This document shows positions 554-57,307 of a stretch of DNA of 59,835 bases, piece after piece. Each line of letters opens with the position of its first letter. Position 1 is the stretch's first letter. Location of the stretch: assembly GCA_038244585.1 (NCBI GenBank), contig JBBRTI010000003.1:1-59835 (forward strand). The letters run 5' to 3'. The notes under the pieces were generated by a model. The model saw only the letters and a program-made list of their open reading frames with translations. It had not been told where the DNA came from and made no database searches. Both the position numbers and the translations under genes were made by a program. This DNA is from Candidatus Saccharimonadia bacterium. Lineage in GTDB: Bacteria; Patescibacteriota; Saccharimonadia; UBA4664.

Positions 554-562
554 AGCATAAGC
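554..562. promoter_or_regulatory. AGCATAAGC promoter-associated motif in a divergent intergenic region
   Basis: Exact 9-mer. On the minus strand it reads CGCTTATGC-TATATA, abutting a -10-like hexamer. Confidence 0.5.
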
Positions 563-593
563 GCTATATTTAATGCTAAGAGATTATATATAA

Positions 594-1514
594 ATGCCTC
601 CTATTTCCCCCACCCCGCCACAACCTGAACCAAAGCCTACTCCGACCAACAGGTCCTGGTCGCGTATGATGGCGCGGGCCAATAGTGTCTCTAGCGTCAT
701 CGCGCTGCTGGCATTTATATTGCTTGTGGGGAGTATCGCGGGATACTTCTACGCTCAGAGCACCAAGAAGGCTACCGAGCCCGCCAAAACTCAGGTGCAG
801 ACCCTAAGCCAGGACGACATCAAGAAGCTCACCGATGTCAGCACCAGCCTGGGCAATTCCAATCAGACGCTGAACATCGGTGCCAATGCCCTGTTCCGCG
901 GCAAACTGGACGTGACCGGCGATTTTAGTGTCGGCGGACGCTTCAACGCCAACGGGCCGGTTACGCTAAGCGAACTCAATATCAGCGGCACCACGGCCCT
1001 GACTGGGCTCAGCGTAGGATCCAACCTGACAGTATCCGGCCTCACAACGCTGCAAAAAGGCCTTACGGTAGGCCAACTGCTGAGCGTCAACGGCGGCCTC
1101 AACGTCAGTGGCACGGCCAGCGTCAACGCGCTAAACGCGCAATCCATTTCCACCCAAACCATTTCCATTGCCGGCCCGCTGACCATCGGACACCTGCGCA
1201 CTCAAGGCCCCACACCTGGCATTTCAGCCGGCAGTGCCATTGGCGGCGGCGGAACGGTGAGCATCAGCGGCAATGACACCGCCGGTACAGTCAACATCAA
1301 CACCGGCAGCGGAACCACCGGCGGTCTCCTGGCTTCAATCGCCTTCCGTGCCGGTTTTACAGGCGGCGTCCATGTACTGCTGTCGCCCTTGACCGGACCA
1401 AGCGCTTCAACCCCGGTTTACGTCACCCGCACTGCCTCCGGTTTCACTATTCGCACCGACTCGCCTCCCCCAGCCGGCAGCGTTATGGCGTATGATTACT
1501 TCATCACTCAGTAA
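594..1514 (+). CDS. Membrane-anchored beta-helical fibre-like protein (paralog of 19245..20363)
   Basis: Pro-rich N-terminus, one TM helix, repeats such as L.V.G...V.G, then C-terminal head GNDTAGTVNINTG...VLLSP...YVTRTASGFTI...YDYFITQ. Confidence 0.8.
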   Translation: MPPISPTPPQPEPKPTPTNRSWSRMMARANSVSSVIALLAFILLVGSIAGYFYAQSTKKATEPAKTQVQTLSQDDIKKLTDVSTSLGNSNQTLNIGANALFRGKLDVTGDFSVGGRFNANGPVTLSELNISGTTALTGLSVGSNLTVSGLTTLQKGLTVGQLLSVNGGLNVSGTASVNALNAQSISTQTISIAGPLTIGHLRTQGPTPGISAGSAIGGGGTVSISGNDTAGTVNINTGSGTTGGLLASIAFRAGFTGGVHVLLSPLTGPSASTPVYVTRTASGFTIRTDSPPPAGSVMAYDYFITQ

Positions 1515-1532
1515 AACGACCTGCTACCAACC

Positions 1533-2417
1533 ATGCAAATACGCCGCGGCTTAACTACAAACCTCACCTATTGGCGACGCCAACTGCTATCGCCACGTGG
1601 CGTTTACGTTTTGACCTTTTTAGGTATTGGATTAGTTGTGGCCAGTACCACTATATTGCCGTTCCAGTGGGCCAGACACGAGGCCAGGTCCCAGGACGCA
1701 CAATTCCAAGCCGCCCTGCAAGTGGCCCAAGGTGCCGATGCCATCATGTCCAAAGACAGCGGCCTACGCAAGATTGCCTTGCAACAGATAGGTCCGACCA
1801 ATACGTTCGCCGCCAACTCTTGGGAAGCCGCCGATAACTTCAATTCTCAATCTCCGGGACGGCCCCTGGATATCTGGCCGCCGCTTTTGCCACCATCGTC
1901 CTACCCGTCGCGCTACGTGGCGGCGATAAATAAGGCCAGCCGCGATAGCGAGCCAGCGCGCGTGGCAACAGCTGCTGTCTTCCTTGCTACTAAACGCTTC
2001 CTGCTGCACGACGCCAACGTCACCCGCGCCCTGGTAAACATACTGTCGTACAACCCCCAGACTGATTTTGGAGGCAGCACCACCACTGCCGATCGCGCCA
2101 ACCGCCTGCAACGGGCCAAAGACGGCCTTAGCAAAACCCACGCCAATCTAGCCGATATCAACGCCGGCGACGACCCTAGTCTGGCCGACGTATCCCTGGC
2201 AATACAACACCTGCAAACAGCGCGCGACAATTTTGCTGCCGGCGGTTCATTAGCTGAATGGTCCGACCAAGTAGACCTACAGCAAACAACCATCTTGGGC
2301 AACCGCATCCGCTTCTGGAGCGAGCGCGCCGGCGCACTGGACGAGCGCCTCATTGCCGTCATCAACCAGTTGACCACAGCCCACGCTTCCTGGCTTCATC
2401 TCACCGGAGGATTGTAA
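1533..2417 (+). CDS. Hypothetical single-TM, mostly helical extracellular protein
   Basis: 294-aa ORF 18 nt after the previous gene, with an N-terminal TM (VYVLTFLGIGLVVASTTILPF). It converges on the next gene with a 2-nt gap. Confidence 0.7.
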   Translation: MQIRRGLTTNLTYWRRQLLSPRGVYVLTFLGIGLVVASTTILPFQWARHEARSQDAQFQAALQVAQGADAIMSKDSGLRKIALQQIGPTNTFAANSWEAADNFNSQSPGRPLDIWPPLLPPSSYPSRYVAAINKASRDSEPARVATAAVFLATKRFLLHDANVTRALVNILSYNPQTDFGGSTTTADRANRLQRAKDGLSKTHANLADINAGDDPSLADVSLAIQHLQTARDNFAAGGSLAEWSDQVDLQQTTILGNRIRFWSERAGALDERLIAVINQLTTAHASWLHLTGGL

Positions 2418-2419
2418 TT

Positions 2420-5400
2420 CTACTGGGCCCAGAAGTAGTTCTGCTCTTTGCCGGTTTTGGGATCGAACCAAGCGCCGTGACGCAACAGCAAATCAGTTGT
2501 CGGCGCATAGATAAAGGCGTTGGTCTGGAATGTGGGTGCTGACGCGCTGGCCGCTTGGCTCACTCGGAAGTACATCCAGTAGGCGCCGGCGCCATCGGAG
2601 TCATAATATTCGCTCAATCCGTTGGCCGGTTGCCCGCTGATACGGCAGCCAGAGTTAGCCAAACAATCGGTATTGGTACTGATGGTTTCCCACGATGAAG
2701 TGGTGAGGTGGAACACCTCCAGCTTGATATTAGCCGTGGCGGCGCTAACCGTTGATCCGCCGGTCCACTGCACGTTGGCCGGCGTCGTGTTGTCAGTCTG
2801 CTTAATGTTAAACAAATAGTAAGGCTGCTCGTTGGCATTGCCGTAAAGCGTATCGTAGAAGCCATCGTTACTTTGGACGCCGCAGTAACCCATATCGTTA
2901 GCCACCGAGCTACAGTCGGCCGTGGAGTTGCGCGGAGCCAGGCCAAAGTCTAGGTGATATCTAGCGGCGTTGATGCGAGCATTACGCGGTCCGGCCGGAG
3001 TGGTTTCAATAGCGCTGGGTTTTACCGAAGGAATCTTGAGTTTAGCAATTTTTAAATCCAGGTTACTGGCGTCATAATAACTAACCCATGGCATACCGGA
3101 ATAATCAAAGGCGATGGTAGTATATTGGCCTACCGTACCACCTGTATTGATGCTGCCGCAGTTCCAAGCGGTGGAAGTACAGTTACCGCCGCTGGTCACA
3201 AAATGGGCCACCCGCAAGTCGCCTGCACTGGAGTCGTAGTAGCTGATCCACGGGTTGCCGGTGGCATCAAAGGCAATCGACGAATATTGCCCGTCGGAGG
3301 CCGAGTTATCAACCTGCGTACACTGCCAAGCCGCGCTCAAGCTGCAGTTGCCGCCCGTTCCAACGTATTTGGCTACGTCCAGAGCAGTGTTGGTGCCGTC
3401 GTAATAGGTAATCCAAGGCTTGCCATTGGTATCCATACTCATGGAGGTTGACGACGCGCCGGCCGCGTCCACCGAGGTACATTGCCACAAGCTGGAGGTA
3501 CAGCCGCTACCGCCTGCACCCACATATTGAGCTACGCGCAGTTGACCGTTTGCGCTGTCATAATAACTGATCCAGGGCGTACCGCTACTATCAAAACTCA
3601 GGTTAGAAAATTGGCCGGCGGTGACCGTGGCATCAACCGTGGTACAGGTCCAGGCAGTAGAGAGCCCGCAACCAGTGCCGTTGAGGCCAACGTACTGGGC
3701 CATTCGCAACCGGAAGTTGGTGTTATCATAATAGGCTATCCACGGTACATCAGATTTACTGAAGGCAATTGACGTGTATTGTCCTGTCGAACCATTATCG
3801 ATGGCAGAACAGTTCCACAGTGCCGTACCGCCCGTGCTCAAGCAGGAACCACTGGCCGATACTTCTTGCGCCACACGCAACGTTCCCGCCGTGTTATCAC
3901 GGAATGCCACCCACGGGGTGCCATCGCCCGCGAAGGCCAAGGAGCTATGCTGGCCCTTGGTATTGGTAGTTTCCATAGCTGCACACGTCCACTGGGTATT
4001 GGCACAACCTGTGCCTCCGCTGCCCGAATATTTCGCATATCTGAGTGCCGAGTTTGTTGAATCGTAATAGCTAAGCCACGGTCGGCCGGCCGGGTCAAAG
4101 GCAAAACTGTTATAGGTACCGACGCTATTAGTACTTTGGATAGCCTCACAGCCCCAAGTCGCATCGCCGTCGCAGGTAGGAAAACTAGGGTTGGTGTCTT
4201 TTGAAAACCGTAGGTTGGGAGACGCGTCCATTGTGAGAGTAGGATAAGCTGCCACCGTCGTTGGCCCCCGCCACACACCCTTATCATTGCGGTCTGAGGT
4301 CGATGAAGCCAACATGAACCGATAGGTGGCTCCCGCCGTAGCCTGAGTAGTATCCAGCGTAAATGCCACTTCAGTACACTGCCCGACCAGGTTGCCGGCC
4401 GGCAAAATAGAAGTAGTGCCGGTGGTGGAGTTGGTCTGCGCCTGTGACCCGGTACCCCAGACCCCGTTGGTCCATTGCGCGCCGGCCGTGAGACAGTCGG
4501 CGTCGTTTTGGTTAGTGGTATCATTGACGGCCGTCATATCCGCCTGGGACTTAGTGATACCGGCCGGGCTGACACCCGCGATTCCCGCGGCCGGCAGGAT
4601 TTCCCCGCCGCCAGTGACCTGCGCTGTCCTGAGGGATGTGTTAGTGGGGTCATAATAAGCCGCCCACAAGTTCCCGTCAGGTGCTGTCGCCACACTGGTA
4701 AACTGGCCAGTGCTGGTGCCAGTGTTATCCACCGCGCTACAGTTCCAGGCCGCGCTAGTACAGTTACCTCCTGAGCCAACCAGGCGCGCAATCCTTAATG
4801 AAGTATTGGTTGTGTCGGTGTATGACACCGCAATCTGACCGGAGGCATCCGCCGCAAGCGAAGTGTACCGACCAGTATCAGTGCCGGTGTTGTCCACCTG
4901 CCCGCAGGTCCAGCCCGACCCCGTACAGGCAGTGCCGAAGCCACCACCGTTGGTCGCCACCCTCAGGGCACTGCTGGTAGCGTCATAATAACTAACCCAA
5001 GCATTACCTGTGGGGCCAAATAACAGACTGGGGTACGAGCCCGTATCAGTGCCGGTATTGTCCACAGAGGTGCAAGTGAACGCCACAGAACCGGTTGCGC
5101 CACAACCAGTGCCGTTGGAACCGCCGACGAAGTTAGCGACATTCAGCTCCGTAGAGGCTTTGTCGTAATAGGCAATCCACGGCTTGCCGGCATGGTCAAA
5201 GGCGATACTGGAATAATCAATGCCGGTCGCATTACCTTCATCGAGCACGGCGCAGTTAAAGGTAGCCGTTGCGCCACATCCGGTACCACCGGAAGCCACA
5301 TAGGTGGCATATTTATTGCCTTTGAGGGTACCGTTATCATATGAATACGACACCCAGGCGTTACCGGTCTGGTCAAAAGCAATTGAGCTGAACGAGCCGG

Positions 5401-7768: not shown

Positions 7769-7850
7769 GCTGAAACGCTGCTAAATACCACTCTCATCAT
7801 GATTGAGTATATCATTTACGCTTATGCTAGCCCAGACCAGAACGGCAGTT

Positions 7851-10800
7851 TTAGAAGCTAGCACGGTAATCAAAGCGGATCTCACCGGCCAGGGCACTGT
7901 TGCTCGTGGACGATGAATTCAGACGTACCCGGAAGGTAGCGACTTCGTTAGCCGCAAAACCGCAAGCAGTTATAGTTCCTGAGAGCGGGTTTTCCGACCA
8001 ACCCCCGGTGTTTGAAGTAATAGTGGTCGTAGTGCCGCACTGCGTGCCGTTGGCGCGGAATAATGCCAGTTGGACGCTATCGTTAACGGTCGAACGGAAG
8101 CCCCACATATTGACGGTGGTATCGGAGGCAAAAGCGTTGAAGTCGCTGGGGATGATGTAGTGGACATAGACGTCATAGGTCTGGTTGCTCGTATTGATGG
8201 AGTTCCACTTGTAATAGTTGTGGACGTCGCCAGCGGTAGGACAGAATGCCACGGTGGTCGTGATGGTCAGGCTGGCCAAGTTGGAAGCGGCGCAGAAATC
8301 AGAGGTCATAGTTCCGGTAGTGCCTGTCGCGGCGCTGGCACTCATGGTAGCGCCGGGGTATTCCGGCGATAAGTTAATGCGGCGCGTGGGGCGGGCCGTA
8401 CCGTTGTAAGTAACGGCTTTAGTTGTGGCATCAAATGATGAGTTGTTGGTGGAGTCACCAATTTGGACCAGGTTGGCGAGTTCCACCGTGCCCGTAACAT
8501 ACAACGCCGAGTTAGCCAGGGTACCGTTGCCGAGCGTCGGTGAGCCGCTGCCTAATCGGACTTTGAACTGGCTAGAATCAATCGTCATGACACCGTTGCC
8601 TAACGTCGCGATGCCGGTGGATGTCATGTTGCCGTTGGTCTGGACGCTGAAGACAGTCGAAGATGATGCTTGTAGGTTGACTAGCGTGGTGCCGGCCGTC
8701 TTGTTGATAAACAGTGAGGTATTGGTCGACGTATCGCCTTGGGCGGTGCCAGGTGCCAGCTGGACATACCCGCCCGCATAGAAGGCCGCGTAGGTGCTGC
8801 CGCAGGTCGAGGCGTAGGTCGTACAAATCTGGTAAGTTCCGGTGGTGGCGGTAGCAAACTGGTAGATGACGGCCGCAGTAGGATTGGCGAAGCCAACGCT
8901 TGTAGTGAAACCCGCGTTGGTGCCCGATAGCGTGGTGCCGGCGGCGGCTCCCTGCAAGGTCAGCGACCCGGCCGCCTTGCCGACCGTGACGCCGGAGGCG
9001 GTAGTGGTACCGATATTGATGGCGGTAGCCCCGCTGGCATCGATGGCGCCGGCCGAACTGAACGTGATGCCGGTGACACCGCTGACCGCTCCAGCTCCGG
9101 TTACGCCACCGGCGTTGTTGGCGATGCCGCCGGTGACCGAGGCACCGCCATTGGCGGACAACAACCCCGTGACGTTGACTGCGCTATTGAAGTTGGCCGA
9201 GTTGGTAACGGTCAGACCGTTGGCCGTCAGGAGCCCGGAAGTATTAACGATAGCCAGTTGCGACGTCGCACCCAGCGTTTGGCCGTTGATGGTGCCGCTG
9301 GTTACAGCACCGCCGGCTGCCACCGCGAACTTACTAGTTTCACTACCGCTGGCGCCGCTCCACAAGTCCAATAAATTGCCTCCTATGGCGGCGTTGGTCA
9401 GCTTGGCAAATATCAGAGCATTGCCGGCGCCGGCGTTGGCTGCCGCGGTCACCTTAAGCGCCGAACCGGTTCCGGCACCGCTGTCGAGCTGGAGTACGTC
9501 GGCGGTAGCAGCTCCGGTGTTGGCGAAGCGGTACAGATACTGGCCGGCCGTCAGTCCGACCGACGATGACTCATTAGCGATGTTCTTGCGCAAGTTCGTC
9601 GTGGTACAGGAATTGATGTCGCTCGTACAAATATTATAGGTTGTCGCGCTACTCGGCGCGGCAAATTGGTAAGTTGCCACTGTGGCCGACGATACGGCGT
9701 TGACCGTGGTGTTGCCAAAAACCAGCTTGGAAGCCGAACCACCCTGAACTATGGTTGTCGCTGTCGAATTCCCCACGTTTATGGCGGACGCATTGGAGGT
9801 ACCAAGGTTCACAATTCCTGTAGTCGATGTTGCCGTACCCGAGTCAATTGTGACGTTACCCGAGGTACCGGCGCTGGCGTTGCCGGAAGTTAGCGTGACG
9901 GCGGAACTGACGGCGGCATCAGCCGATTTGAAAGCTCCTCCGCCGGTAATCGTACTGTTTGCCGTCACGGTGGTCGCGCCGGAAATGGCTCCGGCATTAG
10001 TCACGCCACCGCTCTGATTATCCAAACCGCCGGTCAGTTTCAAACTCCCAGTAAGACTGTTCTGGGCGGCGCTGGTTACGTTCAGCGTACCATTAGTGAG
10101 GGTCAAGTTGCCGGCGGACACTGTGACATTCGAGGTGACTCCCAGCGTACCGGTAATAGCTGAGTTGCCTGTGACGCCAATGCCGCCGGCCTGCACAGTT
10201 ACGGCTCCGGCCGAGGTTACAGTGCCGGAAAACTGCGCCGTCGAAGTTATAGTCTGACCATTAATAGCACCTGCGGCCGTCACCGCACCGGCACTCGTGA
10301 CGCTGAATTTACTCACACTAGCTGCCTGTATATCCAATAAGTTGCCGCTGGGCGCGACGTTGGTATTGTTGGCAAAGATAACCGCGGCACCGCCCACTGG
10401 GTTTCCGGACTGGGTTACGCTAAGGGCTGATCCCGTACCTGCCCCAGTCAGTTGCAGCACGTTGCCGGAGGTGTTGGTGAGGCCCATCAGGTACCCGGCG
10501 ACGCCGGCACTGGACGTGTCGGCCGCGTTCTTAGCCAGGTAATTTCCGACGGCCAAGTACGTTCCGGAACAAGTACCGACGACTGTAGTACATACGGTCC
10601 CGCCGGCGTTACTGAACGTCGTAGTAGTGGTAGCCGTCGGGTTGGCAAAGGCAACAGTAGAAGAAAATGTCCCCGCCGCATTCGACATTACCAGGCTGGA
10701 TGAGGCAGCCGCCCCCTGGATCGATACCGTAGCCGGCGTAGCGCCATTGTGGCCGACAGTGATATTAGGCGCGTTCGTGGCTCCGATGTTCAAATTGCCC

Positions 10801-11915
10801 GCGAAGCCGCTGCCGCTCTTGGCTCCGGTATCAATTGAAACGTTTCCGGTACTCGAGTTGGTTCCGGTGCCGTCACCAGATTTGACTGTTACCCCGCCCG
10901 TCGACAGCCCGCTGCCGCCAGTCACATTTCCGCTGCGAACTGTCAGGCTAGCCGTTCCGGCGGCAGCGGAATCAGCTGTAGAGTGAAGTGGAGCCTGTAA
11001 GACGGCTGCTACGCCGGTACCGGAGATATTGAAGTTACTACTCGCCTGTTGGATAGTCGTATTCTGAATAAAATTGCTTGTTGTACCTGTAACAAAGCCA
11101 CAGTTCGCCGAGTTTTGGATACATAGCGTGCCGGCCTCGTTCGGTAGATTGATGGCGTTGTTGGTAGTTGGGGTGATAAACCCGAGAGTGGTTGTAAAAC
11201 CGCCTGAGGTTCCTTTTATGGTCGAGGCGGAAGTGCCCTGCAGAGTAAAGGCCGCTGTGCTTCGACCGATATTCAGACTGGTCTGAGTGCCCGTACCGAT
11301 ATTCATGGCCACGCCAGTAGCGGTATCAATCAGTGGGGCTTGGAGTGAGGTGGCAGCCTGCAGGCTGCCGGTAACGTTGAGTGATCCGGATTGCGCGCTG
11401 CCCGGGTTAAGCTGAGCGAAAGCCGCTGCGCTCAGACCCTGCAGCTTGTCCGAGTTGAAGGCGTAGGCGGCAGCAGTGAACTGGATGCGCGGAGCCATTT
11501 CCGCATCGGTACTGAAGGTGATGCCCATGAATATATTGTCGGTGTTGAAGTCGACCGATCCCGGCAAAGCCGTGACATCGCCTAGGTTGGTCTGGAACAC
11601 GCCGTCGCTGACCGTCAGACTTTTGGACTCGGTCCACACCGCCGCTCCACCGGGAGCCTGCTGGGAGTAGATTTTGAAGACGAAGGTGTAGCTGCCGTTG
11701 GCCACGTTAGTACCGTTGGTGTTGACTACTTTACCCTAGAAATTAACCGTTTTGTTGATGCCTGTGGCGGCTATTACCGGCGCCGGCAAGGTGCCTGCGA
11801 CCACACTCAATACAACGCCTAAAAGACCAGTTAGCGCTAAGGCCTTAGTCTTGTGCCGACGTATGGCTACCGCCGTTACCCTGAATATCCGACTCGTGAC
11901 GAGACGATTGGGCAA
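7851..11915 (-). pseudogene. Modular fibre-like adhesin gene interrupted by an in-frame TAG at 11736-11738
   Basis: GGAG plus TTG at 11915 gives MPNRLVTSRIFRVTAVAIRRHKTKALALTGLLGVVLSVVAGTLPAPVIA-ATGINKTVNF*GKVVNTNGTNVANGSYTF, in frame with the 1284-aa ORF (11705..7851). That ORF has no signal peptide of its own. Confidence 0.65.
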
Positions 11916-11946
11916 ACTTACTCCATCACAACATTTACCCTTATAG

Positions 11947-11975
11947 CATAAGGGTTTTGTTACTTAAACACAAGC
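11947..11975 (-). promoter_or_regulatory. Sigma70-like promoter for the fibre gene
   Basis: TTTAAG-17 nt-TATAAG with an extended TGC. The spacer ends in CTTATGC. Boundaries approximate. Confidence 0.45.
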
Positions 11976-14123: not shown

Positions 14124-15206
14124 CTAAAAGTTGCCGGCGCCCACTACAGTAAGAATATCAGTGTAGTCGCTGGAGGCCGGAGTGTAGTTGGCGATGGCCG
14201 CCCGTTCAATCAAGGTGATAACATCCCCGGCGGAAAAGGCCGGTGACGCGCCGGTACAGGCGGCACTAGGCTGGAATGTTGCGCTTAAGGCTCCGCCCGT
14301 GGCCGAGGTTACTGGGCCGCCAGTCGTTGTCCCATTATACGATGAATCTATCACTAGGGTACAGCCGCCTGCCGCATCCGTCGTCAAGTCAGTATCGAGC
14401 ATATAACCCTCTGTCCCGGCGGTAATTTGTTTCAGCGGCGGCGCCCCCGACATGGTGCTGGTCGTTACAATAGTGTAGTTGGCTGTTGTCGAACGCAACC
14501 CCTGCTGGGAGTCTTTAACCCAGGCAATCCAGCCGCCTTTGGCATTTGTGGTGACACTCACCGTCTTGCCGCTAGTCGAGATTACCTGGGTTGAATCAAG
14601 GTTGGTAACAAACGGGTCGCTGTTACCAGACAAAGCGAAGCTAAAGGACGGCGGTACAACGGCCGTAACTACTATCTGATCATCATTGATGTTCGCCAAG
14701 GCGATATTAGTGAAGTCGATTACAACGGCTCCGGACGTTTGAGTCTGGATATTGGCCTGCTGGTTGGTCGCAGGCCCGGAGGCCGTTGTGAGAGTACTAG
14801 TACCAACAAAATTGAAGCAATACGGTGTGCCGACGGTGAGATCGCCGGACGGAAAGGTGGCCGTCTTGGCGATGTTATCAACGGCTGATGCTGTGCCGAT
14901 ACCAAGCCAAGCCGATGCGCCTGAGGGTAGGTTTGTGGTGGTAACCGTCCAGTTTGCTGCCGTCGCGTTCAACGTGTACGTTGATGGAAAAGTTACGACA
15001 ACTTTACCCTCAGTCGCGGTCGAGGCCGGCGTAGCACAAACCGTACCGCCAGTCGCGGTGTTGACCTTCATACGGTCAAGACGCACATACGCCTGGCTAA
15101 ACCCGACCGCTCCGGCCGCAACAGGCGTGAATGCCGACAACGTACTCAGTACGATTGCCACCACAGACACAATATGAACAATTGTTCGGGGCTTCCAGCT
15201 CCGCAT
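14124..15206 (-). CDS. Secreted WxL-like subunit (paralog 1)
   Basis: Signal peptide. DDQIVVTAVVPPSFSFALSG...V.TNAKGGW.AWVKD...YTDILTVVGAGNF at the C-terminus. Confidence 0.75.
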   Translation of the reverse strand: MRSWKPRTIVHIVSVVAIVLSTLSAFTPVAAGAVGFSQAYVRLDRMKVNTATGGTVCATPASTATEGKVVVTFPSTYTLNATAANWTVTTTNLPSGASAWLGIGTASAVDNIAKTATFPSGDLTVGTPYCFNFVGTSTLTTASGPATNQQANIQTQTSGAVVIDFTNIALANINDDQIVVTAVVPPSFSFALSGNSDPFVTNLDSTQVISTSGKTVSVTTNAKGGWIAWVKDSQQGLRSTTANYTIVTTSTMSGAPPLKQITAGTEGYMLDTDLTTDAAGGCTLVIDSSYNGTTTGGPVTSATGGALSATFQPSAACTGASPAFSAGDVITLIERAAIANYTPASSDYTDILTVVGAGNF

Positions 15207-15223: not shown

Positions 15224-15263
15224 ACTACTTAAAACTAGTGTAGCTAAAGCATAAGCAGGTTGC
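15224..15263 (-). promoter_or_regulatory. Sigma70-like promoter of 14124 gene with GCTTATGCT in the spacer
   Basis: TTGCAA-CCTGCTTATGCTTTAGC (17 nt)-TACACT. Boundaries approximate. Confidence 0.55.
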
Positions 15264-15286
15264 AAGATGTAAAACGCCAAATAATC

Positions 15287-18217: not shown

Positions 18218-19156
18218 TTATGCCAATGCGGCCATTTGGCCCTGCATGACAGTCTTTTCGCGACGCTCGCCCAGCCAGAACGACAGCACCATCAAGAACA
18301 AAACGATGATGAGCGGCCAGATGACCATCAATCCTCCGATATCGATACCGCTGCTGCCCTTGGTGGTGGAAGCCGTCGAGGCCGTTGGTTCGTTGACAAT
18401 CGTCGTCAACTGCAGATAGGCAGTATGTCCCGCGGCATCGGTTGCACGGATGATTAGTGGGAAAGCTCCCAAATAACCGCCGACCTTGTCATAGATATGA
18501 TCGAGAGTGAACGGGCCGGGGCCCAGGCGCGTCACTAGGCTGCTCTTGCCGTCGCCCCATTCGAAATTGACGGCGTATGGCGCCAGTCCGCCGACAATTT
18601 CAATAGGCCAGACAACCTGCTGTCCCGGCACGACCCCGCGATAATAACTGGTCGACTGTAGGAGCAGCTCGCTAGAAAACCCAAAACCTCCGGCTGGGAC
18701 GTTGAGGGTGACGTTGACTGTCGGAGAGTCAGGGCCGGCCTGATCGTTGGTGTTGAAAGCGATGGCAGTAAGGGCGTTAGAGCCAATCAACAGGTCAATC
18801 GGCAGGTTGAAATGGCCCGAGGCGTCGCAGATAATACTACCGGCCAGGACCCCGTTCTTAAAGACTTTGATAAGCGTACCCTTTGGGCATGTGCCCGAGG
18901 CGGTAACCGGGTTGGATACAAAAGTCTGGCCGTTGACCGGCGAGGTAATAACGGCCGGCTGCGTTGGGCGCGGCCCCGGCACCACCGCCAGGACCGTGTA
19001 GGTGCCAGAGCCAGTAAGAGCCGCCTGTGCCGGCGTAGTTACCATCGCCGCAATGAAACTCGTGACCAACAGCAAGAATACGAGCAACGCGTAGGACGTT
19101 TCTCGATGGGGCCTCAGCCGCCCCGTATGCCGATGATGACTTAGCTTTACAACCAT
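18218..19156 (-). CDS. Doubly membrane-anchored Ig-like plus PKD-like protein
   Basis: HHRHTGRLRPHRETSY N-terminus, TM, P..ITSP.NG..V.GTC..G.F...IDL..G.N.L Ig-like domain, WGDG..H.Y...G PKD-like domain, C-terminal TM. Confidence 0.75.
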   Translation of the reverse strand: MVVKLSHHRHTGRLRPHRETSYALLVFLLLVTSFIAAMVTTPAQAALTGSGTYTVLAVVPGPRPTQPAVITSPVNGQTFVSNPVTASGTCPKGTLIKVFKNGVLAGSIICDASGHFNLPIDLLIGSNALTAIAFNTNDQAGPDSPTVNVTLNVPAGGFGFSSELLLQSTSYYRGVVPGQQVVWPIEIVGGLAPYAVNFEWGDGKSSLVTRLGPGPFTLDHIYDKVGGYLGAFPLIIRATDAAGHTAYLQLTTIVNEPTASTASTTKGSSGIDIGGLMVIWPLIIVLFLMVLSFWLGERREKTVMQGQMAALA

Positions 19157-19244
19157 AACTGTTACTTATGAATATAGCATAAGCGTGACAGATAGACGGC
19201 CCGTTGTACAAAGCAAAGCGTAACCGCTATCATATTATTACTGA

Positions 19245-30721: not shown

Positions 30722-32167
30722 CTACTCGACTTTGCGGCGAATGAACGCCGGAACATCCAGATCATCGTCATCAATGCCAAGGTCGGCCAAAGGCAGTTTG
30801 CGGGCGAAACTGGCTTCCGGCTCATCGAAGGCAGGAAGAACCGGTTCGTCATCCTCGCTATGGTGTGCCTTGTGTGGGGCAGCGTGGAGTGGGCGCTTGG
30901 CCTGGTGAGCCCGATCATTGTCATCCGGCTCAATTGAGGCCAGTGGTTGGAACCGGCGCGGCGGGACGGCGGATTCCGGCTCATGCGCTGGAAAAACGAC
31001 ATCCGGTTCGGGTTCCGTCTGCGGCCGCTCATTAATGAAGGGCTGGCGTACCGTCGGTACGACGGCAGGACGAGGAAAAATCGGCTGTGGTTCCGGCTCA
31101 GATTCCGGTTCAAGTTCCTCCTCGAGCTCCGGCTGCTGCCTGGAAATGACTACCGGCGTACCTGCAGCCTGCTCCGATCGGTTGGAGTGAAACTGCCCGC
31201 GCAGTTCTTTGGGCGTATTATCAAAGCCGGTCGCGACGACGGTGATCAGAATGTCGTCTTCCAGGCTGTCGTCAAGGACAGCACCGAAGATGATGTTGGC
31301 CTCAGGGTCGACGGCATCGGTGACAGTCTTAGCCGCTTCGTCGATTTCATGCATTGTCATATTGCGGCCGCCGGTAATGTTGAACAGGACACCGCGCGCG
31401 CCTTCGATACTGGTTTCGAGCAACGGACTGTCGATGGCCTGGCGGGCCGCTTCGACGGCGCGGTTGTCGCCCTTGGCCCGGCCAATGCCCATCAGGGCGG
31501 AACCAGCATTACTCATGATGGCCTTGACGTCGGCGAAGTCCAGATTAATCAGACCGTGGATGGTAATAAGGTTACTGATCCCCTGAACACCCTGCTGGAG
31601 GACTTCATCCACGATACCAAAGGCATCAACCAGTGAAGTCTTACGGTCGATCATCTGAAGTAGCCGGTCGTTTGGAATTGTGATCAATGTGTCTACATTG
31701 TCCTTAAGTTCCCGGATGCCGGCTTCAGCGCTGCGCCGGCGGCGTTCGCCTTCAAAGGTGAACGGCTTGGTTACGATACCGACGACCAGGGCTCCGGCTT
31801 CTCTGGCCGCGGCCGCTATATATGGTGCGGATCCGGTACCGGTGCCGCCGCCTTCACCAAGGGTAATAAAGACCATGTCGGCGCCTTTGACGGCCTCGTA
31901 TATTTCCTGTTCGCTTTCCTCAGCGGCCTTGCGACCGACCTCCGGATCCGCCCCAGCACCGAGTCCGCGAGTCGTCTCGCGACCGATATGAATTTTACTG
32001 GGAGCCTTAGCATGCACCAGAGCCTGAGCATCGGTATTGATTACCGAAAATTCCACACCTTGCATTTTTGCATCGATCATGCGGTTGATGGCCGATCCGC
32101 CACCGCCGCCTATGCCTATAACTTTGATCCGGGCCGATGTGTCGACCTCGGGCAGTATCTCTGCCAT
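30722..32167 (-). CDS. ftsZ: Cell division protein FtsZ
   Basis: [36 protein letters not shown]-terminal [17 protein letters not shown] upstream of the ATG at 32167. Confidence 0.98.
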
Positions 32168-32399
32168 ATATATGTAACTCCTTACCACAAGCCCTAAGCT
32201 GTGTTAACCACTAGCGGGTACAACGTCAACTCTAAACGGTTATAAAAAACAATGCAACTTTTTTATTCGGCTGTATGAAGCCAAATTTATCGTATAAATT
32301 ATGTATTCTAAAATACTTATTTCTGCCTTATACAAGGTATATAAATTTGAACTAAATGTAGTATTGCTTATGCTTGAACAAAATTTGTCTGCATAAAAG

Positions 32400-32408
32400 T
32401 TTTCCACA
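32400..32408 (+). promoter_or_regulatory. DnaA box upstream of ftsZ
   Basis: TTTTCCACA in an AT-rich intergenic region. Confidence 0.45.
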
Positions 32409-32582
32409 ACCTGTCATTCTTAGCCTAAAATAGGCCTCTAAATAAGCGCTCATGCTTTCGTTACTAGCGAGCTTGGCAGTTAGTTCATCCAAGGACAGGG
32501 CAACTCATTTACCCAATTAAGTACAAGCCGTGCATACATTGCAAAATGTACCTTCCCCTTCCCGCCCATTACGTGCTAGAAC

Positions 32583-32628: not shown

Positions 32629-33885
32629 CTACGGGAGCAGGTTCTTGAATAGACCTTTGATCTTGTCGACCGTCTGGCCGATTTTGGCTCCCGGAGCCGC
32701 TTGAGGCGCGCCATGAGTCATGTTTTCCAGCATCAGCCCGATGGGAGCGGCGAAGGCCGGGTCATTGATGCGGTCAACAATACCAGTGAAGCCCTCAGGC
32801 TTCCCTACGATGGCCGGCAGCTGCAGCAACTCCTTGGCAAGCTCCTCGATACCAATCATCTTGGATCCGCCTCCAGTCAGGACAACGCCGCCAGGTAGCA
32901 GGTGGTCCTTGCCGATCTTCTTCAGCTCCCCGCGCACCAGATGGAAAATCTCTTCCAGTCGGGCGTCGGCGATGCGCTGCAGTTCACGGCGGGTCATGAC
33001 GTTATCGTCGCTGTCGAGCTCCTCAATGCGGATTTTCTCGGTCATGTTCAGACGGGCAGTGTGGGCGCGACCGTATTTGAGCTTTATCTTCTCAGCCACG
33101 TCGATGTCGGTCTTAAGGCCGATGGCCAGATCGTTGGTAATGTGGCCCGCGCCGACGGGAAGCACGCTGGAATAGAGCACATCGCCCTCTTCATACACGG
33201 CGATGCCCGTGGTGCCGCCGCCAATGTCGATTACGGCAACGCCCAGTTCCATCTGACGCTTAGTCAGGACGGCGCGCCCGGCGGCCAGTGCGACCAGAAC
33301 CTGGCCCTGAATTTCTATGCCGGCCTGATAAATGCTGCGGTTCAGGTTCTTGATAGCCGGGGTGGCACCGGTAATGATATGGCTCTCAACCTCAAGCCTC
33401 ACGCCGTTCATGCCCACAGGATCCTTGATGTTGCTCTGAGAGTCAACGGCGTAGCTGCGCGGGAACACCTGGAGAATCTCGCGGTTAGGCGGCAGTTGAA
33501 TGGCTGTAGCTGCCTCTTCCACCCGGTACAGGTCATCGAGAGAAATTTCATTGTCGGCCCGGCCGACGGCAATCACGCCCTTGGAGTTCAGGCTTTGTAC
33601 GTGCGCGCCGTCGATAGAGATAGTCGCCCGGTCGATAGAGATACCGGAAATGCGCTCCGCCTCGTCGACGGCAGCAGTAATCGAGGACACAGTCTCATCC
33701 ACGTCAACAACCACGCCCTTTCGCATGCCGCTTGTCGGGGCCACGCCGACGCCGATTACGCTGGGTTTGGCCGAACCCTCCTCGTGGAGGCCGACAATGC
33801 AGCAAACCTTAGTGCTGCCGACGTCGAGTCCGATGTAGATTTGTTCCGCGGGACCTGCTGCCATGTTGATTGCCAGTTTCTTCAT
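32629..33885 (-). CDS. ftsA: Cell division protein FtsA
   Basis: GLDVGSTKV, GMRKGVVVD, IDIGGGTT, GAGHITNDLA..L, GGVVLTGGGS. Confidence 0.97.
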   Translation of the reverse strand: MKKLAINMAAGPAEQIYIGLDVGSTKVCCIVGLHEEGSAKPSVIGVGVAPTSGMRKGVVVDVDETVSSITAAVDEAERISGISIDRATISIDGAHVQSLNSKGVIAVGRADNEISLDDLYRVEEAATAIQLPPNREILQVFPRSYAVDSQSNIKDPVGMNGVRLEVESHIITGATPAIKNLNRSIYQAGIEIQGQVLVALAAGRAVLTKRQMELGVAVIDIGGGTTGIAVYEEGDVLYSSVLPVGAGHITNDLAIGLKTDIDVAEKIKLKYGRAHTARLNMTEKIRIEELDSDDNVMTRRELQRIADARLEEIFHLVRGELKKIGKDHLLPGGVVLTGGGSKMIGIEELAKELLQLPAIVGKPEGFTGIVDRINDPAFAAPIGLMLENMTHGAPQAAPGAKIGQTVDKIKGLFKNLLP

Positions 33886-33994
33886 TGAGCTAATTATAAT
33901 GCTTATGTACTAGTGTGTGCAAATCGTGTGTACACCATGAGTATACGCTTTAGGATCGTTTCTGAAAATAAACGTGGCGAACACATTCCGTGTT

Positions 33995-36902: not shown

Positions 36903-37235
36903 CTAAGCAGTAGCGTCCAAATGACCCGGCAGGCCAGCTAGGATATGAAAATGCAAGTGATCGACCAGCTGTCCGGCTGTCCGGCCGTTGTTGAGATGCA
37001 CTTTGTAGGCGCCCTTGACCCCCACAAGCTCTGCTACCTCACTTACGGCAAGTAGCAGCCGCCCAGCCAGCGCGGCATCACTCAGGTCGTCAAGACGCGC
37101 GATGTGCTGCTTGGATACTACTAGGATGTGGATTGGGGCTTTAGGATGGATGTCACGGAAGGCAACGGCATCCTGGTTCTCCCAAATAAGTCCAGTGGAA
37201 TCGGCAGCAAGTTTGCAGAATAGGCAATCATTCAT
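36903..37235 (-). CDS. HIT family nucleotide hydrolase
   Basis: DCLFC, AF.DI.PKAP.HILVV.K.H, GQLV.HLHFHIL. Confidence 0.95.
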   Translation of the reverse strand: MNDCLFCKLAADSTGLIWENQDAVAFRDIHPKAPIHILVVSKQHIARLDDLSDAALAGRLLLAVSEVAELVGVKGAYKVHLNNGRTAGQLVDHLHFHILAGLPGHLDATA

Positions 37236-44619: not shown

Positions 44620-44907
44620 TCATAGCGTGTTACTTGTTCCCCGCCGCGATTGGCTCTTGAGGACCAGTCCTTGTAGTTCCCGGTACAAGAGAAATTTGGG
44701 GTTGGCGGCATAAACCTTGGCGTTACCCTCTAGAGTAACCTTGACGAAGCCGACTTCAGCCAGACGCTTGAGCTCACGCTGGACATTGCCGGGATCCTCT
44801 TTGATCATTTTGGCGAGACCGCGGACGTGCATGCGGAAATCAGGATACTTCGTGAAGATGACGATTATCTTGCGGCGGGTTTTGGATGTAATGAATAGTT
44901 CTAACAT
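44620..44907 (-). CDS. Stand-alone winged-helix DNA-binding protein
   Basis: SKTRRKII..F...P....HVRGLAK.I.EDPGNVQRELKRL..VG.V....GN.K.Y.AN. Confidence 0.85.
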   Translation of the reverse strand: MLELFITSKTRRKIIVIFTKYPDFRMHVRGLAKMIKEDPGNVQRELKRLAEVGFVKVTLEGNAKVYAANPKFLLYRELQGLVLKSQSRRGTSNTL

Positions 44908-44950: not shown

Positions 44951-44979
44951 ACTATAGTCCGAGCATAAGCATAATGCAA
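44951..44979 (-). promoter_or_regulatory. Promoter of the wHTH gene with a tandem TATGCT repeat in the spacer
   Basis: TTGCAT-TATGCTTATGCTCGGAC (17 nt)-TATAGT. Confidence 0.65.
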
Positions 44980-51536: not shown

Positions 51537-52781
51537 TTATTTTTTTCGGCGGAACATGGCAGCGCGGGTCTTAAACCATCCGGCGCCTTTTTCGGTGTGT
51601 CGGATATTGGTTTCTTCCTCGGCATCGGCAGCCTCACGCTCCGGATCCGAGTGACTGAGCAGTACCTGATATCGCGCTATCGTAGCCTTGTACCAAGCAT
51701 CGATGTCCGGACTAACGGCCTTGAACTCCGTATGTACTATTTTACCGGAGCCAGGATCCCTGACATCCTCACGTTTAAGCAGGTTCTGGCGAAACGCCTG
51801 CCCCATTACCGCTTCCAACTCGTCTGTGTCATTTCCCGCTTCCGTCAGAGCTCGTTTGAAATAGTTTAGGCGCGCTTTGAGGCCATCCCCAGTAGCCTCG
51901 GCCTTCAAAGGCGATAGGTTGAGAAGTTGGTCAAGGGCCGTAGGCTCGTCTCTCTCGGGAGCGGGCGTTACGGCTGGTGCTTGTAGCACTGCCTGACCCG
52001 GCGTCTGTGACAGCCGTTGCAAGGCCTCCTCACGCATATCCATGATTGAGTTCGCCGCCACCAGCCGGCCTTTATCAAAGCGAGCCGACGCGGGAACATC
52101 ATACGTAATCGTTCCGTCCTCATTTTCCTCAGCCTGCAGATATTTACGCTCGACCCAATGTGCGGTCAGGCGGGCAATCTCTTCAACGCTGTTCGCCTGC
52201 TGATACTGGTCTATGGAGGTGTGTTTAATTGAGTATTCCCGGTCCAACTGCTTGCGGGCTTCTGCAACGGGGTCAGCCTGCTCTACGCCTGCCGCGGTCG
52301 CTTCCTTGCTCTGTTGCTGTTTGGCCAACCCCAGAGTCTTGGAGTACTGGGTCGAGAGCCATTCGAGCCGGCGGGCATGATCAAACAGCCGCAGATTTAA
52401 GGCCTTCTCATATTTAGAGAGGCCCAAACCGTTGGTCACGATACGGCTGTTGACGTCATTACTGTCTATTTTGTGGTACTCAATCTTTTCATTACCTGCT
52501 TCGAAAAAGTCTTGCTGAATACGGGATTGAATCTCTTTTGTCGTCAAACCCCTGTATGACTCCGTTAGGGCGTCGCGAGCCTTTTGGGTCGGATACTTTT
52601 GTTGCTCACGTTTAGACACGGAAGAGCCGGTTTCGGACGTACCAACATCAGACGGAGCAGGGGCTTCTACGGCCGCGGCTGCCCGTTCCGGCTCGCCAAT
52701 GAAAGGCAATTCCGGCAGGGCCGTCGGTGAATTCGGGTCTTCCGGACCGCGTGGACCGGCTGATTCGGGGGGCGTTGGCAT
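51537..52781 (-). CDS. Hypothetical protein (orphan, helical)
   Basis: 414-aa ORF with its own TGG-TATAAT promoter and GGAG SD. No recognisable motif. Confidence 0.75.
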   Translation of the reverse strand: MPTPPESAGPRGPEDPNSPTALPELPFIGEPERAAAAVEAPAPSDVGTSETGSSVSKREQQKYPTQKARDALTESYRGLTTKEIQSRIQQDFFEAGNEKIEYHKIDSNDVNSRIVTNGLGLSKYEKALNLRLFDHARRLEWLSTQYSKTLGLAKQQQSKEATAAGVEQADPVAEARKQLDREYSIKHTSIDQYQQANSVEEIARLTAHWVERKYLQAEENEDGTITYDVPASARFDKGRLVAANSIMDMREEALQRLSQTPGQAVLQAPAVTPAPERDEPTALDQLLNLSPLKAEATGDGLKARLNYFKRALTEAGNDTDELEAVMGQAFRQNLLKREDVRDPGSGKIVHTEFKAVSPDIDAWYKATIARYQVLLSHSDPEREAADAEEETNIRHTEKGAGWFKTRAAMFRRKK

Positions 52782-52823
52782 GCAAAAACTCCAGTCGTTC
52801 TTATCTGGATTATACCATAAGCG

Positions 52824-53153: not shown

Positions 53154-53155
53154 GG

Positions 53156-54931: not shown

Positions 54932-54937
54932 GTCTAC

Positions 54938-55138: not shown

Positions 55139-55142
55139 CTGC

Positions 55143-56228
55143 TTACGCTTCAGCCTTCTTTGTACGTGGCGACTTGAGGCTTAAACTCAGCTTATGAGAG
55201 TCTGCGTCGATAGTGATGATGCGGAACTTCTTGGTCTCGCCCATCTTCACGAGCGTGGAGGGATCCTCGACGTGAGAGTCAGACAGCTCGCTAATGTGAA
55301 CCAGTGCCTCAATTGACGGCGTCACCTGGACGAAAGCTCCGAACGGGGTGATGCGGGTAATCTTACCCTCGACTTCATCGCCCACCTTGTACTTGGCAGC
55401 GTCCTTGACCCACGGGTCAGGCATGAGCTGCTTCATGCTGAGGCTCAGCTTGTCGCGGTCGATGGAAATAATCTTAGCTTCGACCTTGTCGCCCACTTTG
55501 ACGTAGCTCGAGGGATTGTCGACACGATCCCAGGCGATCTCGGAGATATGGACCAAACCTTCGACCCCATCAACATTGACGAAGATTCCGAAGTCCACGA
55601 CACCGGTGGCAACACCAGTAACGGCGTCTCCAACTTTCATCTTGGCAACTTTGCCTTCGGTGTCTTCACGCTTAGCGGCCTTTTCGCTCAAGATGAGCTT
55701 ATTGTCGCGGCGATTGATATCGAGGACACGGACGTTTAAAGTCTTGCCTGTCAGGCCGTTCAGACGGTGGAGGATTTCGTCCTTGTCGGCACCTGAAACG
55801 CGGGGGTAGTTCTCGGCCGATAGCTGCGATACTGGCAGGAAGCCACGGATACCGTCGACTTCGATGAGTAGGCCACCTTTGTTGGCGTCGAATGCAGTGA
55901 CCGCAAAGACTTCGCCAGCGTTGAAGCGCTCTTCGAGCGATTCCCAGCCTTTTTCCTTAGCGACCTTCTTGAGGCTGAGAATGGCGTAGCCGTTCTCGTC
56001 CTCGGGATCCATGACGGAAGCCGAAATAACGTCGCCGGGCTTGATGTCCTGCGAGTGTTCGATTTCCCGTCCTACGACGAGACCGGTGCCGCGCGGACCG
56101 AGGTCCAGCCACACTTCGTGCTTCTCAGCCGCAATGACGGTGCCTTCGATGACATCGCCGGGGCTCATAGCTCCGACGCTGGACTCAGCGAGCAGGTCTT
56201 CCATGGTGATTTCTTTTGTCTGTGCCAT
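55143..56228 (-). CDS. rpsA: 30S ribosomal protein S1 (four S1 domains)
   Basis: GDVIEG.V, NKGGL...DGIRGFLP.SQ, DFGIFV...G.EGLVHISE, FGAFV......EAL.HISEL. I placed the start at MAQTKE. Confidence 0.93.
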   Translation of the reverse strand: MAQTKEITMEDLLAESSVGAMSPGDVIEGTVIAAEKHEVWLDLGPRGTGLVVGREIEHSQDIKPGDVISASVMDPEDENGYAILSLKKVAKEKGWESLEERFNAGEVFAVTAFDANKGGLLIEVDGIRGFLPVSQLSAENYPRVSGADKDEILHRLNGLTGKTLNVRVLDINRRDNKLILSEKAAKREDTEGKVAKMKVGDAVTGVATGVVDFGIFVNVDGVEGLVHISEIAWDRVDNPSSYVKVGDKVEAKIISIDRDKLSLSMKQLMPDPWVKDAAKYKVGDEVEGKITRITPFGAFVQVTPSIEALVHISELSDSHVEDPSTLVKMGETKKFRIITIDADSHKLSLSLKSPRTKKAEA

Positions 56229-56326
56229 ATTTGTAAGTTTCCCCGGCAGCTGCCAGGTACTTCTCCCTTCAAAAAAAATTTCACTCTGCTTGGCAATTGG
56301 AGTGATTAGCCCTATTTTACGATACA

Positions 56327-56360
56327 TAAAGCCCCGCGTCAAAGGTGAGGCGGGGCTTTA
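56327..56360. terminator. Stem-loop/terminator upstream of rpsA
   Basis: TAAAGCCCCGC/GCGGGGCTTTA. Confidence 0.6.
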
Positions 56361-56364
56361 TGGC

Positions 56365-56474
56365 TGTCAGGAGGAGCATGCTCATTCCTGCCAGTGGCGA
56401 TTGATTACAATAATGTATTAATTTAGCAGAATCAACGAGTCCGTCACCAAGGAATGAGTATGCTCCTCCTGGCA
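56365..56474. repeat. 110-nt rod-like inverted repeat (MITE-like element or ncRNA)
   Basis: 22-bp arms CAGGAGGAGCATGCTCATTCCT / AGGAATGAGTATGCTCCTCCTG with one G-T mismatch. Inner stems GTGGCG/CGTCAC and TTGATT/AATCAA. Confidence 0.75.
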
Positions 56475-56485
56475 ATTCTAGGCCG

Positions 56486-56848
56486 TTAGACGCGGACGCG
56501 GATTGCCCGACGAACGCGCAGCTGGCTCTGGCGCCAGTAGAGTGCTGACGTAACGAGGGCAGCCAGTCCAATCAGGCCGTCCTGCGTCGCTCCGGTGTCA
56601 GGGATGACGCCGGGAGAGGTCTCGGCCCCGTCGACGACGGCCGGTGTAGGCGTAGGCGTTGATTTAGCAGAGGCAGACGCGCTGGCACTCACTGAGGGTG
56701 AGGCCGAAGTAGCCTTAGTCTGCTGATTCTGCAACTCCTGGTCATGGCGCAGCTGTGACTGGCGTTGGGAATTACCGTACAGGAACGTAGCCACGACGAT
56801 ACCGCCGATAATTAAAAGTCCGATGGCGGTCTTAACTGAATCGCGCAT
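56486..56848 (-). CDS. Small membrane protein with an LPxTG-like sorting signal
   Basis: N-terminal TM, S/T/P-rich linker, IPDTG, hydrophobic segment, Arg-rich tail. AGGAG SD. Confidence 0.75.
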   Translation of the reverse strand: MRDSVKTAIGLLIIGGIVVATFLYGNSQRQSQLRHDQELQNQQTKATSASPSVSASASASAKSTPTPTPAVVDGAETSPGVIPDTGATQDGLIGLAALVTSALYWRQSQLRVRRAIRVRV

Positions 56849-56925
56849 AATGTTATTTTCTCCTACTTACGCCGGTTATACGCTTATCAAGCCATAACAA
56901 CAAGCATAAGTAAAATAATATATCG

Positions 56926-57110
56926 AAAAACGACCGGGTGTTGCCGAGGAGAGGACACCTTGGAGGGGCCAAACCCAAGCAACACTCGATCGTTTTTTAT
57001 TCGCTGCGCCGGCCATTGCCAGCCAACAAGCGGGGGTGGGGCTTCGTCCGTCACCAAATAACAAGGAGGTGAGCACTCGTACTCAGTTGGGAAAAGCCCC
57101 ATCGCCGCTT
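56926..57110. other. Two intergenic long stem-loops
   Basis: AAAAACGACCGGGTGTTGC/GCAACACTCGATCGTTTTT and AAGCGGGGGTGGGGCTT/AAGCCCCATCGCCGCTT. The second encloses AAGGAGGTGA. Confidence 0.55.
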
Positions 57111-57307
57111 ATCACCCTCACTTTATGCCCGATGGCTGCATAAACGTTATATACAATGTAACACTAATCATAAGTATTGTCAACTCCTGCGGCCGTTTTA
57201 AAAGCTTTACCCGGCAAAAGTCGCTTATACACAGATTCTTCATTACGCTTATGCTCGACAGTAAAATTGTCGCCTAGTATAGTGAATACTATCAAACGAG
57301 CAGGAGG

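Follow-up and report, generated by a model that had tools for sequence, protein, structure and literature searches.

The window analysed here, a 59,835-nt stretch of contig JBBRTI010000003.1 (contig C3 of our assembly numbering), comes from the 828-kb genome of a Candidatus Saccharimonadia bacterium (58 contigs; GC content of 55.6%), in which 779 genes were called by codon-usage score. The window encodes FtsZ, FtsA, FtsW, NrdR, a class II ribonucleotide reductase, IleRS and HisRS, together with SecF, PriA, RbfA, L21, S21, a KGG stress protein and a SpoU methylase. It also carries a surface locus, the first gene of which encodes PamT, a pilus protein of the candidate phyla radiation (CPR) type (NCBIfam NF058579); because PamT starts it, this locus appears to be a Pam pilus locus. 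The Pam pilus was described in a 2026 preprint, from whose discussion promoters and regulation are absent. Recurring between the genes of the window is a 9-mer, AGCATAAGC or GCTTATGCT depending on the strand, which had been predicted to link surface, division and other genes as a lineage-specific transcription-factor site or promoter element. The motif that it represents is a cis-regulatory element, integrated into core promoters and conserved throughout the order.

The seven exact copies listed in the original prediction were all recovered (554 (+), 7820 (−), 15248 (+), 19176 (+), 32366 (−), 44962 (+) and 57247 (−)), and by the gene calls made here all seven are intergenic. Only 0.41 exact matches were expected in the window, and none of 100 dinucleotide-preserving shuffles gave seven; matches with one mismatch numbered 29 versus 11.6 expected. 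Among the close variants that had been claimed, those at 11945 (AGCATAAGG) and 56903 (AGCATAAGT) indeed carry one mismatch, as does the one placed at 52816, which in fact lies at 52814–52822 (ACCATAAGC); those at 33901 and 47970 carry two mismatches and share the CATAAGC core alone. The promoter contexts that had been quoted are present: CTTATGC-TATAAG (11940–11952), CTTATGC-TATATT (19171–19183), CTTATGG-TATAAT (52809–52821), GCTTATGCT-N5-TACACT (15237–15256), GCTTATGCT-N5-TATAGT (44951–44970) and, at ftsA, CATAAGCAT-TATAAT-N7-ATG. Below, G000 denotes the window's own genome, G001 a congener and G029 a complete genome of another family (1.19 Mb, 46.5% GC).

Intergenic enrichment and lineage range of the motif

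The original prediction had been staked on intergenic enrichment genome-wide beyond AT bias, and such enrichment was found when intergenic word counts in G000 were tested against an order-3 Markov expectation. AGCATAA is the top over-represented word at k = 7 (78 intergenic copies versus 21.8 expected), AGCATAAG the top word at k = 8 (37 versus 4.7) and TAGCATAAG at k = 9 (18 versus 1.0). Coding DNA, which is six times larger, holds 50, 14 and 4 copies of the 7-, 8- and 9-mer, respectively, and the 50 coding 7-mers come near the ~55 that base composition would give (a hand estimate). A single-substitution scan gave the pattern A-[G>A,C]-C-[A>G]-T-[A>T]-A-[G>C]-c, in which A0, C2, T4 and A6 are near-invariant and A6 is in no case replaced by T; the motif is preceded by either A or T. 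Its core can be written A-[GAC]-C-[AG]-T-[AT]-A-[GC]-c and is frequently extended to TAGCATAAGC; the 10-mer form of the motif is GCTTATGCTA, and symmetric variants of the core are GCTTAAGC and GCATATGC.

Two other origins of the word were considered and rejected. The copies are not a mobile or dispersed repeat, because their flanks are without information content (~0); for a miniature inverted-repeat transposable element (MITE) or an uptake sequence the same holds, and the coding count is near the composition estimate. Nor is the word an artefact of start codons, as the ATG inside CTTATGCT opens frames of just 2–11 codons at the window sites.

The targets span the surface locus, ftsZ and ftsA, and many unrelated genes, as had been claimed. 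Beyond these, they include genes for a type IV pilin, a XerC/D-like recombinase, YbaB/EbfC, a NOX-like reductase, TrkA, a MarR regulator and a winged helix-turn-helix (wHTH)-nucleotidyltransferase-like protein, as well as a gene for a 95-aa wHTH protein. The set is heterogeneous and, judged by eye, tilted to envelope genes. The window itself is locally enriched: it contains 7 of the 16 intergenic exact 9-mers of the genome (P = 1.5e-5) and 12 of the 79 intergenic 7-mer sites (P = 0.0018), yet only 5.7% of the intergenic bases. This concentration around the Pam locus, along with the type IV pilin gene among the targets, is what would be seen if the motif were an operator dedicated to surface and host-interaction machinery (Pam pilus, type IV pili and type IV secretion system (T4SS)), all other copies being incidental. 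Such a restricted role is very unlikely, however, with 79 intergenic sites genome-wide in front of mixed targets that include the rbfA region, and with the best conserved site of the order located at a protease gene rather than at a surface gene.

The predicted lineage specificity was borne out. The 9-mer exceeds its control, the reversed word of the same composition, in 40 of 40 order relatives from 12 families (1321 versus 407 in sum, with extremes of 49 versus 5, 46 versus 3 and 33 versus 3). Counts in the other orders of the class are mixed (23 versus 1 and 25 versus 7, but 14 versus 14 and 14 versus 11 in one family), and in the rest of the phylum (143 genomes) the ratio is ~1 with few exceptions, so that few other Patescibacteria show the enrichment. 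In G029, AGCATAAG is again among the leading intergenic words (64 versus 12).

Placement of the motif within core promoters

Leaderless mRNAs are predicted to be in wide use in G000, because in 97 of 734 genes a TAnnnT hexamer starts exactly 12–13 nt before the start codon (for example, at 33883–33898 and 36903–37235 of the window). These promoters carry T at −15 in 51 of 97 and G at −14 in 58 of 97 (that is, a TGn extended −10), with almost no −35 signal, and their consensus is TGnTAnAAT. The −35 is weak, with TTGCAT found in several conserved promoters. A generic scan for sigma-70 promoters and terminators was uninformative (17 found versus 11.7 expected) and missed the motif promoters.

Within this architecture the motif occupies defined places. 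In G000, 73 of the 79 intergenic 7-mer sites face at least one gene 5′ end, and the orientations that are unambiguous split 29 versus 20; in a set of 261 leaderless promoters from G000 and G029, 32 of the 41 motif matches fall between −47 and −11. The stereotyped position relative to the −10 that had been claimed was reproduced as sharp peaks in a spacing survey of 218 intergenic sites from the same two genomes (background of 3.9 per position). With the motif read as GCTTATGCT, a −10-like hexamer begins on its last T at 42 sites (~15 expected given the shared T, by hand estimate), one base past it at 22 sites and 23–24 nt past it at 23 sites; with the motif read as AGCATAA, the hexamer follows after N1 at 21 sites, N4 at 13 and N6 at 17. 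From these peaks, the motif in either orientation prefers the 8 bp that immediately precede the −10 (−20 to −13). Moreover, the peak at 23–24 nt is the fit expected if the last T of the motif also serves as the opening base of the −35 hexamer, and it defines a second position class, at ~−43 to −35, that ends on this base. The claim of a promoter element is upheld with two amendments: the element is genome-wide, with the window enriched, and a second class, not noticed originally, abuts the −35.

Promoters with the motif make up ~10% of promoters in each sampled genome of the order, and those of stable RNAs are scarcely among them. Of the tRNA genes, 1 of 31 and 2 of 48 (3 of 79) are preceded by the motif, which is absent from the 16S promoter region of G000; in G029, the candidate 16S promoter hexamers have an AGCATAA immediately downstream of them. 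An UP-like or general strength element was rejected, as tRNA promoters almost never have the motif and the G000 16S region is without it. A −35 mimic (TAGCAT resembling TTGCAT) was rejected for want of a peak at 17-nt spacing, and an alternative-sigma element for the use of both orientations and the lack of a conserved upstream partner element.

The placement at the −10 raises the question of whether RNA polymerase itself could be the reader. The word would then be a composite read by the sigma-A holoenzyme (a TRTGn ‘−16 region' plus the −10-like TATGCT or TAGCAT, on both strands), without any separate factor, and would be frequent via selection for strong, −35-independent and often leaderless promoters. 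The TGn extended −10 and very weak −35 of leaderless promoters agree with this, as do the commonest layout, in which TTATGC is fused to TAnnnT (the 42 sites above), the tolerated substitutions, which match T-R-T-G-n with n free and G invariant, and the four leaderless genes whose −10 is TATGCT itself. Yet those four are only 4 of 261 leaderless promoters, against 218 intergenic copies of TTATGCT in G000 and G029. Furthermore, the same −20 to −13 slot is filled in both orientations, of which the forward one places AA, not TG, at −15/−14; G/C at −20/−19 is foreign to the general consensus (C at −19 in 13 of 97); the −35-abutting class, where CTTATGC is better conserved than the −35, corresponds to no known RNA polymerase contact; and the motif is confined to a tenth or so of promoters, with tRNA promoters almost never included. 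Direct reading by sigma-A is the main rival of a separate factor; on balance, we consider it unlikely, with a chance that is still appreciable.

The closest known core promoter element is the ‘−16 region', or TRTG extended −10, of Gram-positive sigma-A promoters, reportedly described by Voskuil and Chambliss in 1998. The likeness extends only to the subclass fused to the −10 (T-TATG-C before TAnnnT, at TRTGn distance): TRTG stands one base upstream of the −10 at the 42 fused sites, but not at the forward N1, N4 and N6 sites or at the −35-abutting ones. The Saccharimonadia motif is also longer, is constrained to G/C at −20/−19, occurs in both orientations at one and the same position, has a −35-abutting class, and is limited to ~10% of promoters, almost none of them of tRNA genes. 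TGn is general in G000 promoters; the full motif is not.

A role at the level of DNA without a dedicated reader was weighed as well, be it a structural clamp bounding the −10 melting region, a nucleoid-protein preference or a methylation target. The core, GC-TTAT-GC, is pseudo-symmetric, and the word sits between TA-rich −10-like hexamers on both strands, at the same place in either orientation, as such a role would allow. The asymmetric positions are strongly constrained, however (A6 never becomes T), the exact word is retained at −42 to −35, which is outside melting, and coding DNA is neither depleted nor enriched; we therefore hold a purely structural role to be very unlikely.

Sites of the window and their conservation

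G001 is syntenic with the entire window at 74–80% nucleotide identity, and among the alignable sites the full 9-mer is kept in 5 of 8 and the 8-mer core in 7 of 8. Over all intergenic 9-mers only 21% are perfectly kept in G001 (P = 0.013, within the genus). At 554, 32366, 56903 and 57247 the motif forms an island of identity in diverged sequence. Across families, 15 ortholog pairs have the motif upstream in both G000 and G029, versus 7.7 expected (P = 0.002), and several of these pairs also keep its orientation and distance. Conservation at orthologous promoters despite diverged flanks, as looked for in an operator, was thus found both across families and within the genus.

The best-supported site, at 57247–57283 (+), is the promoter of gene 57308–57817 (+). 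It consists of GCTTATGCT (57247–57255), the −35 TCGACA (57255–57260), N17 and the −10 TATAGT (57278–57283), so that the motif ends in a T with which the −35 also begins. At this promoter, CTTATGCT stands 22–23 nt before a TATAGT-type −10 in 22 of 30 genomes, drawn from at least six families, although the sequence upstream of it and the spacer differ and not even the −35 is constant (TCGACA, TAGACA, TGGCAA and others). The gene is present order-wide; its 169-aa product has a HELGH motif, a match to the phrog_87 phage metalloprotease family (E = 9e-6) and a C-terminal CxxC...CxxC zinc ribbon, and it is predicted to be an ImmA/IrrE-like metalloprotease on account of the HELGH motif and the phrog_87 match.

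The protease gene adjoins the gene of the small KGG stress protein (called at 57905–58123), and no Xre-type partner gene was found beside it. In and just past the 3′ end of the KGG gene as called, before the terminator, are three exact 19-nt tandem repeats (GACGAAGCGTAAGCTTCCA; 57865–57911 (−)), each with the related word AGCGTAAGC. This triplet was rejected as an operator set, the 19-nt spacing of AGCGTAAGC being that of the tandem repeat; clusters of motif sites at helical spacing were not found in G000.

In a third type of layout, seen at 15248 and 44962, the motif lies inside the spacer: TTGCAa/t(−35)-N3-GCTTATGCT-N5-TAnnnT, with a spacer of exactly 17 nt. The complete promoter of gene 14124–15206, at 15237–15265 (−), comprises the −35 TTGCAA (15265–15260), N3, GCTTATGCT (15256–15248), N5 and the −10 TACACT (15242–15237), and it is conserved in G001. 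That of the 95-aa wHTH gene (44620–44907), at 44951–44979 (−), has the −35 TTGCAT (44979–44974), a tandem TATGCTTATGCT (44973–44962), N5 and the −10 TATAGT (44956–44951). Within family f1, the position of this site in the spacer is fixed and its sequence moderately conserved and drifting; the G029 ortholog has TTATGCT-N5-TATAAT.

At several sites the motif runs directly into the −10. Upstream of gene 18218–19156, in a gap divergent with gene 19245 (+), GCTTATGC (19184–19177) abuts the −10 TATATT (19176–19171) on the minus strand (19171–19184); this site is absent from G001, which has ACCATACG, and the G029 ortholog reads TTATGC-TACAAT. The next three are one-mismatch copies. The copy at 11940–11953 (−), ~240 nt upstream of gene 7851–11705, has CTTATGC (11952–11946) abutting TATAAG (11945–11940), and it lies within a perfect palindrome with an 8-bp stem, ACCCTTATAGCATAAGGGT (ACCCTTAT-AGC-ATAAGGGT; 11937–11955), inside a block of ~50 nt that is identical in G001. 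At 52809–52822 (−), downstream of rbfA and upstream of gene 51537–52781, GCTTATGG abuts the −10 TATAAT (52814–52809), and CATAAGCG is conserved in G001. Finally, at 56903–56916 (+), in a 460-nt divergent gap, AGCATAAG abuts TAAAAT, and AAGCATAAG is the conserved island relative to G001.

The site at 56903 precedes a strongly conserved non-coding block (~56925–57200), which begins with CGACCGGGTGTTGCCGAGGAGAGGACACCTTGGAGGGGCCAAACCC and lies between two motif sites. It is near-identical in the congener, with diverged flanks, and may be a small or structured RNA. Rfam gave no match to it, nor to any of the motif sites or the 56840–57320 gap as a whole.

Two further exact copies lie beside Pam-locus genes. 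The one at 554–562 (+), in the divergent gap between pamT (3–488, −) and gene 594–1514 (+), adjoins a −10 on each strand: GCTTATGC reads into the −10 TATATA (549–554) on the bottom strand, and the top strand has the −10 TATATT (565–570) after AGCATAAGC-GC. In G001, AGCATAAGCGCTATATT is kept and the flank on the pamT side has diverged; the motif is unmoved there and the pamT-side −10 displaced by two bases. The copy at 7820–7828 (−), between two giant genes of the locus, is in forward orientation and precedes the −10 TATACT (7811–7806) by 8 nt. This −10 is 5 nt before a leaderless upstream open reading frame (uORF) of 11 codons (7800–7765 (−), MMRVVFSSVSA), whose TGA stop overlaps the ATG of a 1782-aa Pam-locus gene (ATGA), an arrangement that suggests translational coupling or attenuation.

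The copy at 32366–32374 (−), also in forward orientation, is ~180 nt upstream of ftsZ (30722–32188). Its 8-mer is retained in G001 and the copy is genus-specific, other genera having a different conserved ftsZ promoter. The order-wide ftsZ promoter is GAATAAAnnATTTGCAT-N17-TATAGT, with a long leader that carries GGTAAGGAG at its end. In addition, a word resembling a DnaA box (TGTGGAWAA), TTGTGGAAAAC(T)TTTA, shows conservation upstream of ftsZ in several genera (window ~32395–32420 (−) and loci L002, L008, L010, L015 and L022). The leaderless ftsA promoter at 33883–33907 (−) has a partial motif, with the CATAAG core only: CATAAGCAT (33907–33899), the −10 TATAAT (33898–33893), N7 and the ATG (33885). 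Across the order, only (C)ATAAG-aAC-TATAAT of this promoter is retained.

Candidate readers of the motif and related systems

Taken together, the use of both orientations at one place, a −35-abutting class that is better conserved than the −35 itself, the restriction to ~10% of promoters and the near-absence from tRNA promoters favour a sequence-specific factor, perhaps a global regulator of transcription or an RNA polymerase accessory protein. This reading has, in our judgement, about an even chance of being correct. The enrichment, distribution, position and conservation of the motif were read directly from the genomes; it is the separate binding protein, and the sign of its regulation, that we infer. 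Such a factor would bind one asymmetric site of 8–10 bp, or two overlapping sites 6 bp apart. Docked at −20 to −13 in either orientation (~−16), it would compete with sigma and act as a repressor; docked upstream of the −35, at −43 to −35 (~−39), it could contact sigma region 4 and activate. The promoters that respond, about a tenth of all, would include those of the Pam pilus locus, type IV pilin, ftsZ, ftsA, stress protein and ImmA-like protease genes.

Several observations weigh against a separate factor. The spacing to the −10 is very sharp and one orientation yields a perfect TATGn extended −10, both of which fit direct reading by RNA polymerase. A dyad partner, inverted or everted, turned up at none of the spacings from 0 to 12, the sole arrangement being tandem copies with a 6-nt period, which the self-overlapping word permits; the absence of a dyad is unusual for bacterial regulators. 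Furthermore, no cognate reader emerged among the DNA-binding candidates examined (the 95-aa wHTH protein P0001, the HTH_3 protein and a small sigma). The 95-aa wHTH (44620–44907) was rejected as the probable reader, since outside family f1 its own promoter has GTTGTA...TACAAC inverted repeats and not the motif. An Xre-type partner of the ImmA-like protease was rejected as well, since the sole HTH_3 protein has its own palindrome and is without the motif. Finally, a second, small sigma gene is present (contig C5, 24477–25043), and its own promoter also lacks the motif.

The 95-aa wHTH protein is ArsR/Lrs14-like and is encoded in 41 of 41 order genomes and 7 of 7 other genomes of the class, and absent from the remaining phylum (loci L103–L151). 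Its identity is 87–96% within the family and 57–80% across the class, above that of FtsZ. The GTTGTA...TACAAC repeats are probably its own operator, to judge from their occurrence in its promoter across the class. The motif is upstream of the genes for MarR (contig C14, 15300–15740), YbaB (contig C2, 58730–59023) and the wHTH-nucleotidyltransferase paralog (contig C1, 77929–78633).

Two known kinds of operator offer comparisons. The radiation/desiccation response motif (RDRM) of Deinococcus is a 17-bp palindrome with the half-site TTAYGT, present at ~20 sites; DdrO binds it, under the control of the protease IrrE. The core TTAYG(C) of the Saccharimonadia motif resembles this half-site, and the best site is at the gene of an ImmA/IrrE-like HELGH protease, beside the KGG gene; the motif is, however, without a dyad and present at ~80 sites rather than ~20, and no DdrO-like repressor was found. 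The nearest functional analogy is with the MarA/SoxS/Rob marbox and the NarL heptamers, asymmetric sites that fall into position and orientation classes relative to the −35 and −10. They too are non-palindromic, used in both orientations, placed in classes at the −35 and −10, and set before many mixed targets; they differ in sequence and length, and no AraC- or NarL-type protein is linked to the Saccharimonadia motif.

A full-text literature search returned no description of the motif, nor of any promoter motif, regulon or leaderless promoters in Saccharibacteria. The motif is a real and conserved cis-regulatory motif of a familiar kind, and a new one, apparently undescribed. To our knowledge, almost nothing is known of transcription control in Patescibacteria/CPR, and the motif is a first concrete entry point into that of Saccharibacteria. 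It can be used as bait for the regulator and mutated in genetically tractable strains, and the promoters that it marks include those of pilus and division genes expected to be important for the epibiotic lifestyle. An empirical promoter model for these genomes is obtained as well: a TGn extended −10, a weak −35 and leaderless starts at >10% of genes. A more far-reaching proposal, which we put forward tentatively and hold to be possible rather than probable, is that the motif serves as the operator code for a global regulon, which would be the first to be described in Saccharibacteria/CPR. In that case a factor specific to the lineage, possibly a new adaptor bound to RNA polymerase, would read a single asymmetric 9-bp word set right against the −10 or −35 hexamer and thereby coordinate the machinery of host contact (Pam pilus, type IV pili and T4SS) with division and stress genes across Saccharimonadales.

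Elsewhere in G000 (contig C9, 19750–20330), groES-groEL has a canonical CIRCE element in front of it (TTAGCACTC-N9-GAGTGCTAG). Adjoining this region is the only HTH_3 (Xre) gene of the genome, which lies behind a 39-nt palindrome (AGGTGAAAAATGTATCACCTCATGATACATTTTTCACCT).

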